Source: Escherichia coli (lineage in GTDB: Bacteria > Pseudomonadota > Gammaproteobacteria > Enterobacterales > Enterobacteriaceae). Taken from it: a stretch of 64,000 nt of DNA. The position numbers and the translations under genes are program-made. Positions 1,023 through 55,020 of this stretch are shown here, piece after piece (the stretch's first letter is position 1; the number at the start of each line of letters is the position of its first letter). The notes beneath the pieces are model-generated. The model saw only the letters and a list, made by a program, of their open reading frames with translations, was not told where the DNA came from and ran no database searches. The stretch is taken from NCBI RefSeq assembly GCF_003334335.1, contig NZ_QOWQ01000022.1; one strand, given 5' to 3'.

Positions 1023-3305
<2,283 letters not shown>

Positions 3306-3359: not shown

Positions 3360-4217
3360 TTAATGGTGGTCGTTTTCACGCAGGTAAATGACCCAGTATG
3401 TCAACCCAACCAACAAACCACCACCGATAATGTTGCCGATCGTAACCGGAATCAGGTTATCAGTGATGAAATTCATCACGGTCAGGTGAGAAAAATTTTC
3501 CGGTGCAGAACCGACTGCGGTCCAAAATTCCGGGGATGCGAAGTCGCGGATTACAATACCCATCGGGATCATAAACATGTTTGCGATACTGTGCTCAAAA
3601 CCGCTGGCAACAAACATCGCGACCGGCAGCACCATAATGAACGCTTTGTCCATCAGGCTGCGGCCAGAATAACTCATCCATACTGCCAGACATACCATCA
3701 GGTTTGCCAGGATACCAAGACAGACGGCCTCAATAAAAGTATGGTGCACTTTGTGGTCGGCGGTTTGTAGGACGTTTAGTCCCCATTGACCATTTGCGGT
3801 CATATACTCGCCGGAAAGCCACATTAAAAGTACAAACAGCAGTGCGCCGACCAGGTTGCCAAAATAGACATTTAGCCAGTTTTTCGCCAACTGACCCCAG
3901 GTGATGCGCCCACTCGCCTTAGCAACAACAATCAACACGGTGGAAGTAAAGAGATCGGCTCCGCAGACAACACAAAGAATCAGCCCCAGAGAGAAGCAAA
4001 TGCCGCCAACCAGTTTTGCCATGCCGAAGGGCATTGTGCCTGTGCCAGTGGTTGCTGTGATATAGAAGACGAATGCGATTGAGATGAAAACACCGGCGGT
4101 AATCGCCAGATAGAAAGTCTTAAGCGGATGTTTCGTTGCTTTATAGACACCCGCCTCTTCGGCCACTTTGGCCATTGCAGCAGGAAGTAAAAGATCAAAA
4201 GGGTTGTCAGCTTTCAC
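3360..4217 (-). CDS. focA: formate channel FocA (FNT family), 285 aa, GTG start
   Basis: ORF 3360..4391(-) trimmed to the GTG (cac at 4215-4217 on + strand) preceding KADNPFDLL; polytopic membrane protein. Confidence 0.88.
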   Translation of the reverse strand: MKADNPFDLLLPAAMAKVAEEAGVYKATKHPLKTFYLAITAGVFISIAFVFYITATTGTGTMPFGMAKLVGGICFSLGLILCVVCGADLFTSTVLIVVAKASGRITWGQLAKNWLNVYFGNLVGALLFVLLMWLSGEYMTANGQWGLNVLQTADHKVHHTFIEAVCLGILANLMVCLAVWMSYSGRSLMDKAFIMVLPVAMFVASGFEHSIANMFMIPMGIVIRDFASPEFWTAVGSAPENFSHLTVMNFITDNLIPVTIGNIIGGGLLVGLTYWVIYLRENDHH

Positions 4218-4276
4218 ACTAACTCTCTCTTTATTAAGTCGGCGACGAGATACTAACAAAGCATTATAGATGAGAA

Positions 4277-4290
4277 ATTGATATAGATCA
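4277..4290 (-). promoter_or_regulatory. FNR-type box TTGAT-N4-ATCAt in the focA-pflB promoter region
   Basis: TTGATATAGATCAT about 60 bp upstream of the focA GTG; 9/10 match to the TTGAT-N4-ATCAA consensus; AT-rich surroundings. Confidence 0.55.
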
Positions 4291-4622
4291 TATCTCGCCT
4301 GGCTTATAGGCCCGTAACTCGCATGGTTTTTATGCAAATACGGAGTAAATATTTGATTATCCAAATAAAAATAAATTTTAAAAATTAACAAATGAGTTGA
4401 ATTTTTTCCGCATCCTCCGCTAAAACAGTTAATTAAAAGGGAGCATCAGGCGAATAAAGTAACAATATCGATCGTATTTATTAAATACAAATTACCGATA
4501 TTTAACCTTATAATTACAATTATTTTATTAATGCAAATATATGTAAAGCGGGGCATTAAAAAAACGCCCCGTAATATAACTCAGACTAATCATTAAGCCT
4601 ACATTGCGTAGGCTATTTGATT

Positions 4623-6383
4623 TTATTTTGCCCAGAATGCTGCTTTGGCGCGCTGCAGCTTTTCGTAGGCCTTCAACAACGACTGATGTGCAGCAAACGC
4701 GTGCAGATCGCTATCTACCGGTTGCAGGCCGTAAAACGCCGCTTCGCCGCTCATTGCCGCACTGGCGGCTTCTACGGCATCTGCGCCGTACATGCGAACA
4801 AACGCATTCAGATATTGCAGCGGCTGGCGATCTTCTTCCTGTGCCAGTAATAACAACGTTTGCAGGCAGCGATAATAGTTGGCGCGTTCCGGACTAAATA
4901 CTGATGAGTTAAACTCCATCGTCCATTCGGTCCAGACCAGAGCCTGTTCCAGATCGCCACCAGCCAGCGCCAGCATGGCTTTTAATTCACCGATACGCAG
5001 GGTGTACCAACCGTTATCCGACCCGGTCGCCAGACCCAACAGCTCACGCACGCGGGTAAAGTCATCAAAACCTTCTTCATCCAGTTGCTCGATGAGGTTC
5101 AGGTAATCTTCTTTTTCCCACTCGCTGCCTGGTAGCGAAAGAATCGTTTCACGTAAATGGCTGCCCATACTGTTATTCGCGAGCCACAGATCTTCAGCCG
5201 GATAAATATCGGACATGCCAGGCACGATAATACGGCAAGCATAAACGCCCAGATGCTCGTAATCGGCAATATAAACTTCTTTATCTTCTTTGTTGAAGAT
5301 AGCCATCAGTGTGGCGAACTCTTCTTCCGTGGTGCCGGAGAAATTCCAGTCCACAAACGGATAATCGGCATCCTGCTTGAACAGGTCCCAGGAGATTAAA
5401 CCGCTGGAATCGATAAAGTGCGTTTCGAGGTTGGTATGTTCAGCGACTTCTTCATCATCGAAGGTTGGCGGAGTAAACACATCCAAATCTTTCAGGCCAC
5501 GACCTTGCAGCAGCTCGGTCACGGTACGTTCCAGTGCTACGCCAAAATCAGGATGCGCACCGAAAGAGGCAAAGCAGGTACCGTTAGCAGGATTGAACAG
5601 TACCACGCAAATCACCGGATACTGGCCGCCAAGCGAACCGTCATAAGCGAAGATTGGGAAACCCTCCGCTTCCAGCGTTTCGATGGCTTCAACTACTGCT
5701 GGGTAACGCGCCAGCACGTCTGCCGGGATCTCTGGCAGGCTGATGCTTTCAGCAATAATGCGGTTTTTCACGTAGCGTTCGAAAACTTCAGACAATCCCT
5801 GAACGCGTGCTTCGTTGCGGGTATTACCTGCGGACATACCGTTGGAGACGTACAGGTTACCAATGATATTCATCGGAATATAAACGGTCTGATTGTCGGA
5901 CTGACGCGTAAACGGCAGGCCGCAAATACCACGATCTTCGTTACCGGATTGTAGGTCAATCAGCATGCTGCCGGTCAGTTCATTCTCCGGATCATAAAAC
6001 GCGCGCAGACGGTCATCGAGCAGCCCTTCTGGCACATCGTCATTTTCGGTCAGTGGGAACCATTTTTCGTTGGGATAATGCACGAACGGACCGTTGGCGA
6101 TGGTTTCGCCCAGCCAGAAGTCCGCAAAAAAGTAGTTGGTTGAGAGACGCTCGAAATATTCACCGAGTGCAGAAGCCAGCGCCGCTTTCTTGGTTGCGCC
6201 TTTACCGTTGGTAAAACACAGTGCGCACTCTTTGTCGCGAATATGTACAGACCAGACGTTAGGCACGGGATTCAGCCAGGAGGCCTCTTCAATCTGAAAG
6301 CCGAGGTCTGAAAGTTTTTGCTGGAAGCGAGCGATGGAATCTTCCAGAGCGGCATCTTTGCCGGGGATAAATGTTTGCGTCAT
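4623..6383 (-). CDS. ycaO: YcaO-domain ATP-dependent enzyme, 586 aa
   Basis: ORF 4623..6416(-) trimmed to MTQTFIPGKD; divergent from ycaP. Confidence 0.9.
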   Translation of the reverse strand: MTQTFIPGKDAALEDSIARFQQKLSDLGFQIEEASWLNPVPNVWSVHIRDKECALCFTNGKGATKKAALASALGEYFERLSTNYFFADFWLGETIANGPFVHYPNEKWFPLTENDDVPEGLLDDRLRAFYDPENELTGSMLIDLQSGNEDRGICGLPFTRQSDNQTVYIPMNIIGNLYVSNGMSAGNTRNEARVQGLSEVFERYVKNRIIAESISLPEIPADVLARYPAVVEAIETLEAEGFPIFAYDGSLGGQYPVICVVLFNPANGTCFASFGAHPDFGVALERTVTELLQGRGLKDLDVFTPPTFDDEEVAEHTNLETHFIDSSGLISWDLFKQDADYPFVDWNFSGTTEEEFATLMAIFNKEDKEVYIADYEHLGVYACRIIVPGMSDIYPAEDLWLANNSMGSHLRETILSLPGSEWEKEDYLNLIEQLDEEGFDDFTRVRELLGLATGSDNGWYTLRIGELKAMLALAGGDLEQALVWTEWTMEFNSSVFSPERANYYRCLQTLLLLAQEEDRQPLQYLNAFVRMYGADAVEAASAAMSGEAAFYGLQPVDSDLHAFAAHQSLLKAYEKLQRAKAAFWAK

Positions 6384-6512
6384 GAAAATCACTTTAGTCG
6401 TACGGAAAGCGCGCAATAATACGGGTTTTATCTCAAAGGCGCTATCACCGCCGCCATGCCGATGAACTGTTGACTATGCTTTTAGCGGATAAACCACGTT
6501 AAGAGCATAAAA

Positions 6513-14070: not shown

Positions 14071-16335
14071 ATGAAAATAACGACAGTCGGTGTATGCATA
14101 ATTAGCGGAATTTTTCCGTTGCTGATTTTGCCCCAATTGCCTGGGACATTAACCCTTGCGTTTCTGACTCTCTTCGCCTGCGTACTGGCATTTATCCCTG
14201 TTAAAACCGTCCGTTATATCGCGCTGACGTTGCTGTTTTTCGTTTGGGGCATATTATCAGCAAAGCAAATTTTGTGGGCAGGAGAAACCTTAACTGGCGC
14301 GACGCAGGATGCAATTGTTGAGATCACTGCAACTGACGGCATGACCACTCATTACGGTCAAATTACTCATCTACAAGGTCGACGTATATTCCCTGCGTCA
14401 GGTCTCGTGATGTATGGCGAATATCTTCCGCAAGCGGTTTGTGCTGGACAACAATGGTCAATGAAACTCAAAGTTCGTGCAGTTCATGGCCAACTTAATG
14501 ATGGCGGCTTTGATAGCCAGCGTTATGCCATTGCCCAGCATCAGCCGCTCACCGGCCGTTTTCTGCAGGCAAGTGTCATTGAACCGAATTGTAGCCTGCG
14601 TGCACAGTATCTGGCGTCACTACAAACAACGCTGCAACCCTATCCGTGGAATGCGGTTATTCTTGGTTTAGGTATGGGGGAACGGTTATCCGTCCCCAAA
14701 GAAATCAAAAATATCATGCGCGATACTGGAACGGCGCATTTAATGGCGATATCGGGATTGCACATCGCTTTTGCGGCGTTGCTGGCTGCCGGACTCATTC
14801 GCAGTGGACAAATTTTTCTGCCTGGGCGCTGGATCCACTGGCAAATACCATTAATTGGCGGAATCTGCTGTGCTGCTTTTTATGCCTGGTTGACGGGAAT
14901 GCAACCTCCTGCATTGCGTACCATGGTGGCGCTTGCTACGTGGGGAATGCTTAAGTTAAGTGGGCGACAGTGGAGTGGCTGGGATGTATGGATATGTTGT
15001 CTGGCGGCAATTTTGCTGATGGATCCTGTTGCCATTCTCTCGCAAAGTTTATGGCTCTCTGCCGCTGCGGTCGCGGCATTGATATTTTGGTATCAGTGGT
15101 TTCCCTGTCCTGAGTGGCAACTGCCGCCGGTATTGCGTGCAGTTGTTTCCCTCATCCATCTGCAACTGGGAATCACACTTCTGCTTATGCCCGTGCAAAT
15201 CGTCATATTTCATGGCATTAGTCTGACCTCGTTTATTGCAAATCTATTAGCAATTCCCTTGGTGACATTTATCACGGTTCCGTTGATCCTCGCCGCGATG
15301 GTTGTGCATTTAAGCGGGCCGTTAATCCTGGAGCAAGGGTTATGGTTTCTTGCCGACCGGTCTTTGGCTTTACTTTTCTGGGGGTTAAAGAGTTTGCCGG
15401 AAGGGTGGATCAACATTGCTGAATGTTGGCAATGGCTATCATTTTCCCCATGGTTCTTACTGGTGGTATGGCGATTAAACGCCTGGCGAACGTTGCCAGC
15501 AATGTGTGTGGCTGGAGGCTTGCTGATGTGCTGGCCGCTGTGGCAAAAACCTCGACCTGACGAGTGGCAGCTGTACATGCTTGATGTCGGGCAAGGGCTG
15601 GCAATGGTGATAGCCAGAAACGGCAAAGCGATTCTCTATGACACAGGACTGGCCTGGCCTGAAGGGGATAGTGGGCAACAACTGATTATCCCCTGGCTCC
15701 ACTGGCATAATCTTGAACCGGAAGGCGTTATTCTGAGCCATGAACATCTAGATCACCGGGGAGGGCTGGATTCAATATTGCATATATGGCCGATGTTATG
15801 GATCAGAAGTCCGTTAAACTGGGAACATCATCAGCCCTGTGTGCGTGGCGAAGCGTGGCAATGGCAAGGATTGCGTTTCAGCGCGCACTGGCCTTTACAA
15901 GGTAGCAACGATAAAGGAAATAACCATTCCTGTGTGGTTAAGGTTGATGACGGGACGAATAGCATTCTTCTAACCGGTGATATTGAAGCCCCAGCTGAAC
16001 AAAAGATGCTAAGCCGTTACTGGCAGCAAGTGCAGGCAACATTGCTTCAGGTACCTCACCATGGCAGTAATACCTCATCATCGTTGCCATTAATTCAGCG
16101 AGTGAATGGAAAAGTGGCACTCGCATCGGCATCGCGCTATAACGCATGGCGACTGCCCTCTAACAAAGTTAAGCATCGCTATCAACTGCAAGGATATCAA
16201 TGGATTGATACTCCACATCAAGGTCAAACAACGGTCAATTTTTCAGCGCAAGGCTGGCGGATTAGCAGCCTCAGGGAGCAAATTTTACCTCGTTGGTATC
16301 ATCAGTGGTTTGGCGTGCCAGTGGATAACGGGTAG
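14071..16335 (+). CDS. ycaI: ComEC/Rec2-family membrane protein with C-terminal metallo-beta-lactamase domain, 754 aa
   Basis: ORF 13993..16335(+) trimmed to MKITTVGVCII; polytopic N-terminal part; HEHLDHRGG motif. Confidence 0.85.
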   Translation: MKITTVGVCIISGIFPLLILPQLPGTLTLAFLTLFACVLAFIPVKTVRYIALTLLFFVWGILSAKQILWAGETLTGATQDAIVEITATDGMTTHYGQITHLQGRRIFPASGLVMYGEYLPQAVCAGQQWSMKLKVRAVHGQLNDGGFDSQRYAIAQHQPLTGRFLQASVIEPNCSLRAQYLASLQTTLQPYPWNAVILGLGMGERLSVPKEIKNIMRDTGTAHLMAISGLHIAFAALLAAGLIRSGQIFLPGRWIHWQIPLIGGICCAAFYAWLTGMQPPALRTMVALATWGMLKLSGRQWSGWDVWICCLAAILLMDPVAILSQSLWLSAAAVAALIFWYQWFPCPEWQLPPVLRAVVSLIHLQLGITLLLMPVQIVIFHGISLTSFIANLLAIPLVTFITVPLILAAMVVHLSGPLILEQGLWFLADRSLALLFWGLKSLPEGWINIAECWQWLSFSPWFLLVVWRLNAWRTLPAMCVAGGLLMCWPLWQKPRPDEWQLYMLDVGQGLAMVIARNGKAILYDTGLAWPEGDSGQQLIIPWLHWHNLEPEGVILSHEHLDHRGGLDSILHIWPMLWIRSPLNWEHHQPCVRGEAWQWQGLRFSAHWPLQGSNDKGNNHSCVVKVDDGTNSILLTGDIEAPAEQKMLSRYWQQVQATLLQVPHHGSNTSSSLPLIQRVNGKVALASASRYNAWRLPSNKVKHRYQLQGYQWIDTPHQGQTTVNFSAQGWRISSLREQILPRWYHQWFGVPVDNG

Positions 16336-34110: not shown

Positions 34111-34210
34111 TGCCGGATGCGGCACGAGCGCCTTATCCGGCCTACAAAATCGTGCAAATTCAAAATATTGCAGGGGACGCGTAGGCCTGATAAGCGTAGC
34201 GCATCAGGCA
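34111..34210. repeat. REP/BIME-type extragenic palindromic element (two inverted REP units) between gloC and aspC
   Basis: GCCGGATGCGGCACGAGCGCCTTATCCGGCCTAC and inverted GCGTAGGCCTGATAAGCGTAGCGCATCAGGCA. Confidence 0.8.
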
Positions 34211-46694: not shown

Positions 46695-47262
46695 GGGCAT
46701 TACCTCGCAGAGACAGAAGGTCAGGAACCTGAACATCGCGGCGGTGCAATGCCTGCCAGAAAGTTTCTAGCGCGGTATCAAGACGGGTTTGCAGATTTGG
46801 CGTGAACTGGGGTCTGTGATGGTAATCAATTACTTGTGAGTCATCGGCAAACACGCCGTGCAGGATCTCCTGAGCTTTCAGTGCGCTTAAAACTGGTTTA
46901 AGGGCATAATCGACCGCCAGCAGATGGGCCACGGTACCGCCCGTCGCCAGCGGTAGCACCACTTTGCCTTGCAAAGCGCGTTCTGGCAGCAGGTCGAGCA
47001 GGGTTTTCAACGCACCGGAATAGGCGGCTTTATACACAGGCGTGGCGACAATCAGCCCATCGGCCTGTTGCAGCTGTTCGGTGAAGGTCTTGAGTGCCGG
47101 ACTATCGAAACGAGCATAAAGTAGATCTTCCGGGGCGAAGTTTTGCAGATTCCAGTGATAAACCTCTACATCCAGGCCATTTAGTTTTTCCCGCGCATAT
47201 TCCAGCAAGGAGCTGGAGCGAGAAGGAAAGCGAGGACTACCCGCCAGGGTGATGACACGCAT
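46687..47262 (-). CDS. ssuE: NADPH-dependent FMN reductase, 191 aa
   Basis: ORF 46687..47262(-); first gene of the ssuEADCB operon. Confidence 0.95.
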   Translation of the reverse strand: MRVITLAGSPRFPSRSSSLLEYAREKLNGLDVEVYHWNLQNFAPEDLLYARFDSPALKTFTEQLQQADGLIVATPVYKAAYSGALKTLLDLLPERALQGKVVLPLATGGTVAHLLAVDYALKPVLSALKAQEILHGVFADDSQVIDYHHRPQFTPNLQTRLDTALETFWQALHRRDVQVPDLLSLRGNAHA

Positions 47263-53899: not shown

Positions 53900-54009
53900 A
53901 ACAGGTTCGGAAAACGTTTGCGTTTTTTTTGCCGCAGGTCAATTCCCTTTTGGTCCGAACTCGCACATAATACGCCCCCGGTTTGCACACCGGGAATCCA
54001 GGAGAGTTC

Positions 54010-55020
54010 ATGTACTACCCCTTCGTTCGTAAAGCCCTTTTCCAGCTCGATCCAGAGCGCGCTCATGAGTTTACTTTTCAGCAATTACGCCGTATTACAG
54101 GAACGCCGTTTGAAGCACTGGTGCGGCAGAAAGTGCCTGCGAAACCTGTTAACTGCATGGGCCTGACGTTTAAAAATCCGCTTGGTCTGGCAGCCGGTCT
54201 TGATAAAGACGGGGAGTGCATTGACGCGTTAGGCGCGATGGGATTTGGATCGATCGAGATCGGTACCGTCACGCCACGTCCACAGCCAGGTAATGACAAG
54301 CCGCGTCTCTTTCGTCTGGTAGATGCCGAAGGTTTGATCAACCGTATGGGCTTTAATAATCTTGGCGTTGATAACCTCGTAGAGAACGTAAAAAAGGCCC
54401 ATTATGACGGCGTCCTGGGTATTAACATCGGCAAAAATAAAGATACGCCAGTGGAGCAGGGCAAAGATGACTATCTGATTTGTATGGAAAAAATCTATGC
54501 CTATGCGGGATATATCGCCATCAATATTTCATCGCCGAATACCCCAGGATTACGCACGCTGCAATATGGTGAAGCGCTGGATGATCTCTTAACCGCGATT
54601 AAAAATAAGCAAAATGATTTGCAAGCGATGCACCATAAATATGTGCCGATCGCAGTGAAGATCGCGCCGGATCTTTCTGAAGAAGAATTGATCCAGGTTG
54701 CCGATAGTTTAGTTCGCCATAATATTGATGGCGTTATTGCAACCAATACCACACTCGATCGTTCTCTTGTTCAGGGAATGAAAAATTGCGATCAAACCGG
54801 TGGCTTAAGTGGTCGTCCGCTTCAGTTAAAAAGCACCGAAATTATTCGCCGCTTGTCACTGGAATTAAACGGTCGCTTACCGATCATCGGTGTTGGCGGC
54901 ATCGACTCGGTTATCGCTGCGCGTGAAAAGATTGCTGCGGGTGCCTCACTGGTGCAAATTTATTCTGGTTTTATTTTTAAAGGTCCGCCGCTGATTAAAG
55001 AAATCGTTACCCATATCTAA
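54010..55020 (+). CDS. pyrD: dihydroorotate dehydrogenase (quinone), 336 aa
   Basis: ORF 53983..55020(+) trimmed to [23 protein letters not shown] at 54001-54005. Confidence 0.95.

Follow-up and report, generated by a model that had tools for sequence, protein, structure and literature searches.

Does the AT-rich DNA between focA and ycaO hold a genuine FNR site, i.e. one that controls the focA-pflB operon, or a run of letters that resembles such a site by accident? The question carries some weight, as a genuine site here makes the production of pyruvate formate-lyase and of the formate channel, and with it the entry to mixed-acid fermentation, depend on the loss of oxygen. We addressed it in a window of 64,000 nucleotides of Escherichia coli DNA (the whole stretch analyzed, to which all window positions below refer), where a sequence-only reading had proposed an FNR-type box within a multi-promoter anaerobic control region.

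Positions 4150-4700 of the window (551 bases) match E. coli K-12 MG1655 (NC_000913.3) at 100%, and the matching stretch is present in every complete E. coli genome examined (5,426 of 5,426). Judged by this identity and by the RefSeq genes on either side (focA, b0904, and ycaO, b0905), we are dealing with the focA-pflB control region, the name that the sequence-only reading had given it, and with the very DNA of K-12 and no relative of it. The FNR 14-mer and the ArcA four-repeat site are the same in both, and we find no difference. A window position x corresponds to x + 950,249 in NC_000913.3 and to x + 949,472 in U00096.2. The segment from 4218 to 4622 is the entire focA-ycaO spacer (405 bp), and with a G+C content of 30.9%, against 50.7% for the whole window, it is as AT-rich as had been claimed. 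The features of the region are collected in Table 1.

Table 1. Genes and regulatory features of the focA-pflB region, in window coordinates
Feature	Position	Strand	Details
pflA	91-858	minus	
pflB	1023-3305	minus	
focA	3360-4217	minus	RefSeq b0904
focA GTG start codon	4215-4217	minus	RefSeq b0904 and translation
-10 hexamer TAGTAT, FNR-activated P6	4250-4255	minus	predicted start 4243/4244
-10 hexamer TATAAT (perfect), overlapping promoter	4263-4268	minus	FNR box over its -35 region
FNR binding site	4278-4291	minus	ATGATCTATATCAA on coding strand, TTGATATAGATCAT on plus strand; center 4284.5
G+C-rich block GGGCCTATAAGCCAGGCGAGAT	4292-4313	minus	22 bp, directly upstream of FNR box
IHF core AATCAAATATTTA, WATCAA-N4-TTR	4346-4358	minus	predicted
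Conserved A/T tract TTTAAAATTTATTTTT	4367-4382	minus	upstream of IHF core
Further ArcA-type box AAACAGTTAATTAAA	4423-4437	plus	contains classical AGTTAATTAA
ArcA-P site, four direct repeats	4477-4530	minus	core TTGTAATTATAAGGTTAA at 4502-4519
P7 candidate 1, TTTACA-17-AATAAT	4519-4547	minus	predicted start ~4512
ycaO intrinsic terminator hairpin	4549-4571	minus	9-bp stem, then T-rich run
P7 candidate 2, TATATT (4573-4578) and TAGGCT (4596-4601)	4573-4601	minus	17 bp apart
First hairpin after ycaO stop, AGCCTAC...GTAGGCT	4596-4614	minus	not conserved in that form
ycaO	4623-6416	minus	RefSeq b0905; stop codon 4623-4625

A scan for FocA in species-representative genomes returned 80 Enterobacteriaceae loci, 79 of them with upstream sequence that could be analyzed. 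The focA start is GTG at all 79 species loci, in line with the start codon proposed from the window itself; the product begins (V/M)KADNPFDLL, and a purine-rich GAGAGAG (4223-4229) stands ahead of the codon. A TTG-started ORF of 343 aa (3360-4391, minus strand) was rejected: it is an in-frame upstream extension of focA across the promoter region, and an artifact because there is no in-frame stop upstream of focA. The small ORFs within the spacer were likewise set aside as mechanical ORFs of AT-rich DNA without support. In the annotation of Klebsiella pneumoniae MGH 78578 used by Kim et al. (2012), focA is 816 bp long versus 858 here, and an overlooked GTG start is a possible cause. A scan of the spacer (4218-4622) against Rfam found no family; elsewhere in the window, matches at gathering score include the PyrD leader (53942-54015, plus strand, 97.9 bits) and the ES036/CssrF sRNA (34146-34188, plus strand, 53 bits).

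The proposed box, TTGATATAGATCAT, had been read correctly, while its coordinates had not: positions 4277-4290 read ATTGATATAGATCA, and the box lies one position further on (Table 1). A recount against TTGAT-N4-ATCAA gives agreement at 9 of 10 positions, as had been stated, and the distance of "about 60 bp" to the focA GTG is borne out by a near edge 61 bp and a center 67.5 bp upstream. When the whole window is scanned for the consensus with at most one mismatch, 3 matches are found and 2.7 are expected, i.e. the count is at chance level, and the sequence match alone therefore proves little.

A matrix scan for FNR, ArcA, and IHF sites had been suggested as a check, and for FNR the outcome is clear. 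Using a matrix of 62 ChIP-seq-supported sites from Table S6 of Myers et al. (2013), with the focA entry excluded, the box scores 16.57 bits and ranks first among 63,987 window positions (runner-up 12.44 bits); its score also exceeds the median of the training sites (15.13 bits). No remaining position of the spacer scores above 3.6 bits. The search for another strong FNR site in the spacer was negative: the best remaining candidate, CTGAGTTATATTAC, reaches 3.5 bits, and it fits a dimer site poorly, its center being kept across genera and its left half variable. The "2 sites" given in Table 1 of Myers et al. (2013) are motif counts at a low threshold. The next-best FNR-like sites of the window are GTGATGGTAATCAA (46816-46829, 12.4 bits) and TTGATGTCGGGCAA (15581-15594, 11.1 bits). 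Both are entries of Table S6 in Myers et al. (2013), within ssuE and ycaI, respectively, without an FNR ChIP-seq peak, which illustrates that an FNR motif by itself is no predictor of binding.

The top FNR match takes the form ATGATC-NNNN-TCAA at each of the 79 species loci, where the outer four bases of each half-site are invariant and variation is almost confined to the four bases at the center; at 3 of the 79, the ATCAA half has G as its first base. The center of the box stays between -67.5 and -69.5 from the GTG throughout (79/79). Conserved half-sites, a free spacer, and a fixed position together are the footprint that a site for a dimer leaves. Over 24 genera, the segment 4292-4218, which runs from the box to the start codon, shows 94% identity, compared with 70% for the coding end of ycaO. 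Within it, TATAAT (4263-4268) and TAGTAT (4250-4255) are both invariant in 24 genera, and the leader (4218-4235) is nearly so. Directly upstream of the box, the GGGCCTATAAGCCAGGCGAGAT block has a column identity of 80-100% at most positions in the same number of genera. It spans approximately -49 to -70 from the P6 start, a position that would suit the RNA polymerase alpha C-terminal domain or another regulator, e.g. NarL.

Our direct analyses cover the K-12 identity, the matrix rank, the -10 geometry, and the phylogenetic footprints; occupancy by FNR, ArcA, and sigma70, the start sites, and FNR-dependent expression come from published data. Among these, Table S6 of Myers et al. (2013; PMC3688515) lists "TTGATATAGATCAT, focA" at 953,750 as a predicted site under an FNR ChIP-seq peak, whose summit at 953,741/953,746 (window 4269/4274) is 10-15 bp off the site center. 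The same study places the FNR site at -40.5 relative to the EcoCyc focA start site (its Table 1), scores focA-pflB as "Activated" in the comparison of wild type with fnr, and gives an aerobic/anaerobic expression ratio of 0.145 for focA (Myers et al. 2013; PMC3688515). Federowicz et al. (2014) report a 25-fold Fnr ChIP enrichment, labeled "Activation, Known," and ArcA ChIP enrichment over the region as well.

Sigma70 occupancy responds to oxygen too. Two sigma70 ChIP-seq peaks lie in the spacer (window ~4223-4225 and 4560-4568), both six- to seven-fold higher without oxygen; the proximal one rises anaerobically from 285 to 2026 (~7-fold), and the distal one is located at 954,032/954,040, i.e. 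window 4560/4568 (Myers et al. 2013; PMC3688515). Kim et al. (2012) in addition mapped a pflB 5' end to 953,131 (window 3659), which lies within focA, 354 nt ahead of the pflB ATG. Two anaerobically enhanced sigma70 peaks and an internal pflB start site agree with the multi-promoter anaerobic region that the sequence-only reading had described. The 5' end at window 3659 belongs to the operon's internal 5' ends. Later work by Sawers reportedly ascribes most internal pfl 5' ends to RNA processing. As a separate observation, anaerobic H-NS ChIP-chip regions flank or cover the spacer (window 3699-4381 and 4503-5185; Myers et al. 2013, Table S3, PMC3688515).

Which promoter does the box serve? A distance of 29.5 bp separates the center of the box (4284.5) from the upstream edge of TAGTAT (4255) and places the center at -41.5/-40.5 from a start at 4243/4244; this predicted geometry would put the site at the class II FNR position. 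Relative to a start at 4254, the center is at -30.5. Kim et al. (2012) mapped a start of focA transcription to 953,726, which equals window 4254, with a 37-nt leader and TATAAT just upstream. This start, the sole genome-wide one retrieved, fits the TATAAT promoter and not P6. Kaiser & Sawers are said to have described overlapping promoters in 1997, and the present layout of TATAAT and TAGTAT agrees. We take the TATAAT promoter to be of the P6A type and the FNR-activated promoter to be P6. For P6, the figure of -41.5 stands beside the -40.5 published by Myers. A focA transcription start upstream of the box had been named as a result that would count against the site. Such a start would refute nothing, because P6 lies downstream of the box and at least one other promoter lies upstream.

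Taken at face value, a chance FNR-like match in AT-rich DNA, devoid of any regulatory role, would sit well with the consensus count and with a spacer of 31% G+C, which favors A/T-rich motifs. It does not sit well with the first rank in the matrix scan, with near-invariant half-sites around a variable spacer at a fixed distance in all 79 species, or with the published FNR ChIP-seq peak and FNR-dependent expression; the conservation pattern and the ChIP data have already refuted it, and we give it virtually no credence. Equally negligible is the prospect that another member of the CRP/FNR family, e.g. CRP, binds the box in place of FNR. GTGA is typical of CRP sites, and a T-A pair is typical of FNR sites. 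The half-sites here, TTGAT/ATCAT, have the FNR-typical T-A pair and no GTGA, the score is above the median of ChIP-proven FNR sites, and the FNR ChIP signal is centered on the box. These observations weigh against CRP, even though the inverted repeats of CRP and FNR are related to each other and some promoters are known to be co-regulated (Myers et al. 2013, Table 3; PMC3688515).

Another reading takes the box mainly as an operator through which FNR represses the TATAAT promoter (start 4254), with induction achieved chiefly via ArcA and the upstream promoter. FNR centered at -30.5 would indeed occlude the -35 region of an invariant promoter with a perfect TATAAT, the distal anaerobic sigma70 peak equals the proximal one in strength, and the "Promoter 7" paper, by its title, names an ArcA-dependent anaerobic determinant. 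But proximal sigma70 occupancy itself goes up ~7-fold without oxygen, the published score for focA-pflB is activation by FNR, and an invariant TAGTAT stands at the exact class II distance. Moreover, repressing one promoter is compatible with activating the other, so that repression would be an added role and no true alternative. As the main function of the box, we consider it very unlikely.

We conclude that the box at 4278-4291 is almost certainly the FNR site of P6, the main anaerobic promoter of the focA-pflB operon. Under anoxia, a [4Fe-4S] FNR dimer would bind the imperfect inverted repeat and, centered 40.5-41.5 bp upstream of the start, overlap the -35 region in class II fashion and recruit sigma70 RNA polymerase to TAGTAT. 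The same dimer would cover the -35 region of the TATAAT promoter, and oxygen may thus toggle initiation between two starts ~10 bp apart. We infer this overlapping-promoter switch, as well as a looping role for IHF, in which the IHF site at 4346-4358 and the ArcA-P repeats at 4477-4530 and 4423-4437 would connect the core to a second, upstream promoter. The ycaO terminator closes the spacer.

The regulatory region of focA-pflB in E. coli K-12 comprises P6, P6A, and P7 under the control of FNR, ArcA, IHF, and NarL/NarP. The FNR site of P6 is already known and belongs to textbook knowledge; studies of it date back to 1989, and genome-wide FNR and ArcA maps include it. Work on the pfl promoter region is said to include that of Sawers & Bock in 1989, Sawers in 1993, Drapal & Sawers in 1995, and Kaiser & Sawers in 1995 and 1997. 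Against this background, the analysis shows that a true regulatory site can be recognized from sequence alone, and it adds a footprint of the entire control region across the family.

The site can be compared with class II FNR promoters such as those of dmsA, narG, nirB, and yfiD, which have TTGAT-N4-ATCAA over the -35 region with a center at -40.5/-41.5. Similar to these, the focA promoter has a weak or absent -35 hexamer, and its sigma70 occupancy and expression increase anaerobically. It differs from them in a half-site that reads ATGAT and not TTGAT—a deviation that is invariant in 79 species—and in a second, perfect -10 hexamer that overlaps the promoter, owing to which bound FNR should also block the neighboring start site. 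The spacer is also listed among the "promoter islands" of Panyukov & Ozoline (2013), as 953696_434 focA/ycaO (window 4224-4658), and shares their defining trait, i.e. an AT-rich stretch dense in promoter-like signals. However, most promoter islands are horizontally acquired, silenced by H-NS, and yield little productive transcription, whereas the focA spacer belongs to a highly expressed core operon and is conserved family-wide.

The suggested scans for ArcA and IHF sites also bore fruit. With a matrix of 114 other ArcA boxes, the core at 4502-4519 scores 16.8 bits, second best of ~128,000 window positions on both strands; the neighboring repeat pair scores 10.1 bits, and shuffled spacer sequences give 0.8 matches of at least 10 bits. 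Park et al. (2013) report an ArcA site at 953,949-954,002 with four direct repeats, under the ArcA ChIP peak focA2. The segment at 4477-4530 has the make-up of an ArcA-P direct-repeat operator, i.e. TGTTAA-like repeats at 11-bp spacing, and TGTA, GTTAA, and GT within the repeats are invariant across genera. The further ArcA-type box at 4423-4437 corresponds to the ArcA motif match at 953,895-953,909 of Federowicz et al. (2014), and its TTAATTAAC is conserved in 24 genera.

The predicted IHF core is the sole perfect match to the IHF consensus in the spacer. Across genera, its consensus positions are conserved while the N4 positions vary, which is the footprint expected of a genuine IHF site. 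Sirko et al. (1993) reportedly found that IHF binds in vitro and is needed for pfl induction. Number searches of Table S4 in Myers et al. (2013; PMC3688515) showed no IHF ChIP-chip entries near the core (953,6xx-954,0xx).

Several short hairpins had been described in the spacer as consistent with promoter control. They do exist, at 4596-4614 and 4549-4571 in the minus-strand RNA just after the ycaO stop (fold -30.1 kcal/mol, z = -5.0), yet they belong to the terminator end of ycaO and are no promoter elements. The helix at 4549-4571 is paired in 92% of cells across 21 genera, and 4 of its 8 pairs show compensatory changes; the T run that follows it is present in most genera, and interrupted or degenerate in E. 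coli. This element is the Rho-independent terminator of ycaO and no promoter feature. An alternative helix that uses GTAGGC was rejected, as it is paired in only 73% of cells with almost no compensatory change and so is without covariation support. Neither ycaO nor focA has an entry in the supplementary 3'-end maps of Adams et al. (2021).

Where, then, is the upstream promoter? The literature places promoter 7 (P7) upstream of the box, and the title of one cited paper calls promoter 7 a [quoted passage not shown] We find two candidates. TTTACA-17-AATAAT is the only sigma70-type consensus match in 4100-4750, and its hexamers are identical to those assigned to focA-pflB by RpoD-holoenzyme SELEX (Shimada et al. 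2014); it is weakly conserved beyond Escherichia, Salmonella, and Citrobacter. In the region of the second candidate (4571-4602), TATATTA is invariant and GTAGG at least 90% conserved over 21 genera, with no indels between them, and the candidate, directly 5' of the ycaO terminator stem, adjoins the distal anaerobic sigma70 peak. It is absent from the promoter scan because only 8 of 12 consensus positions match.

TATATT and TAGGCT may, as a tentative proposal that we would put well short of an even chance, make up the core of the upstream promoter of focA, nested in the ycaO terminator. If so, anaerobic transcripts would start at ~4565/4566, within the 5' arm of this terminator's stem, and consequently could not form the hairpin that stops read-through from ycaO. 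Should the published mapping of P7 already point there, only this idea of terminator escape would be new. The TATATT block may alternatively be a conserved single-stranded element of the ycaO 3'-UTR RNA; among the best-ranked literature matches on ycaO, Hfq, sRNA, and RIL-seq, none mentions ycaO, so that nothing in them ties the gene to a small RNA that is Hfq-bound or comes from a 3'-UTR.

The foot of the ycaO terminator is also the site of an insertion in another isolate. E. coli KFu015, from river water in Japan (NZ_CP147130.1), carries a 768-bp IS1 in the focA-ycaO spacer (locus L082 of our set). The insertion lies upstream of the ArcA repeats, and positions 4547-4555 are duplicated as its 9-bp target. 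In the mouse gut, IS elements inserted ahead of focA are reported to be adaptive and to increase anaerobic expression of focA, and insertions in this spacer are selected as the gut is colonized (PMC5094792).
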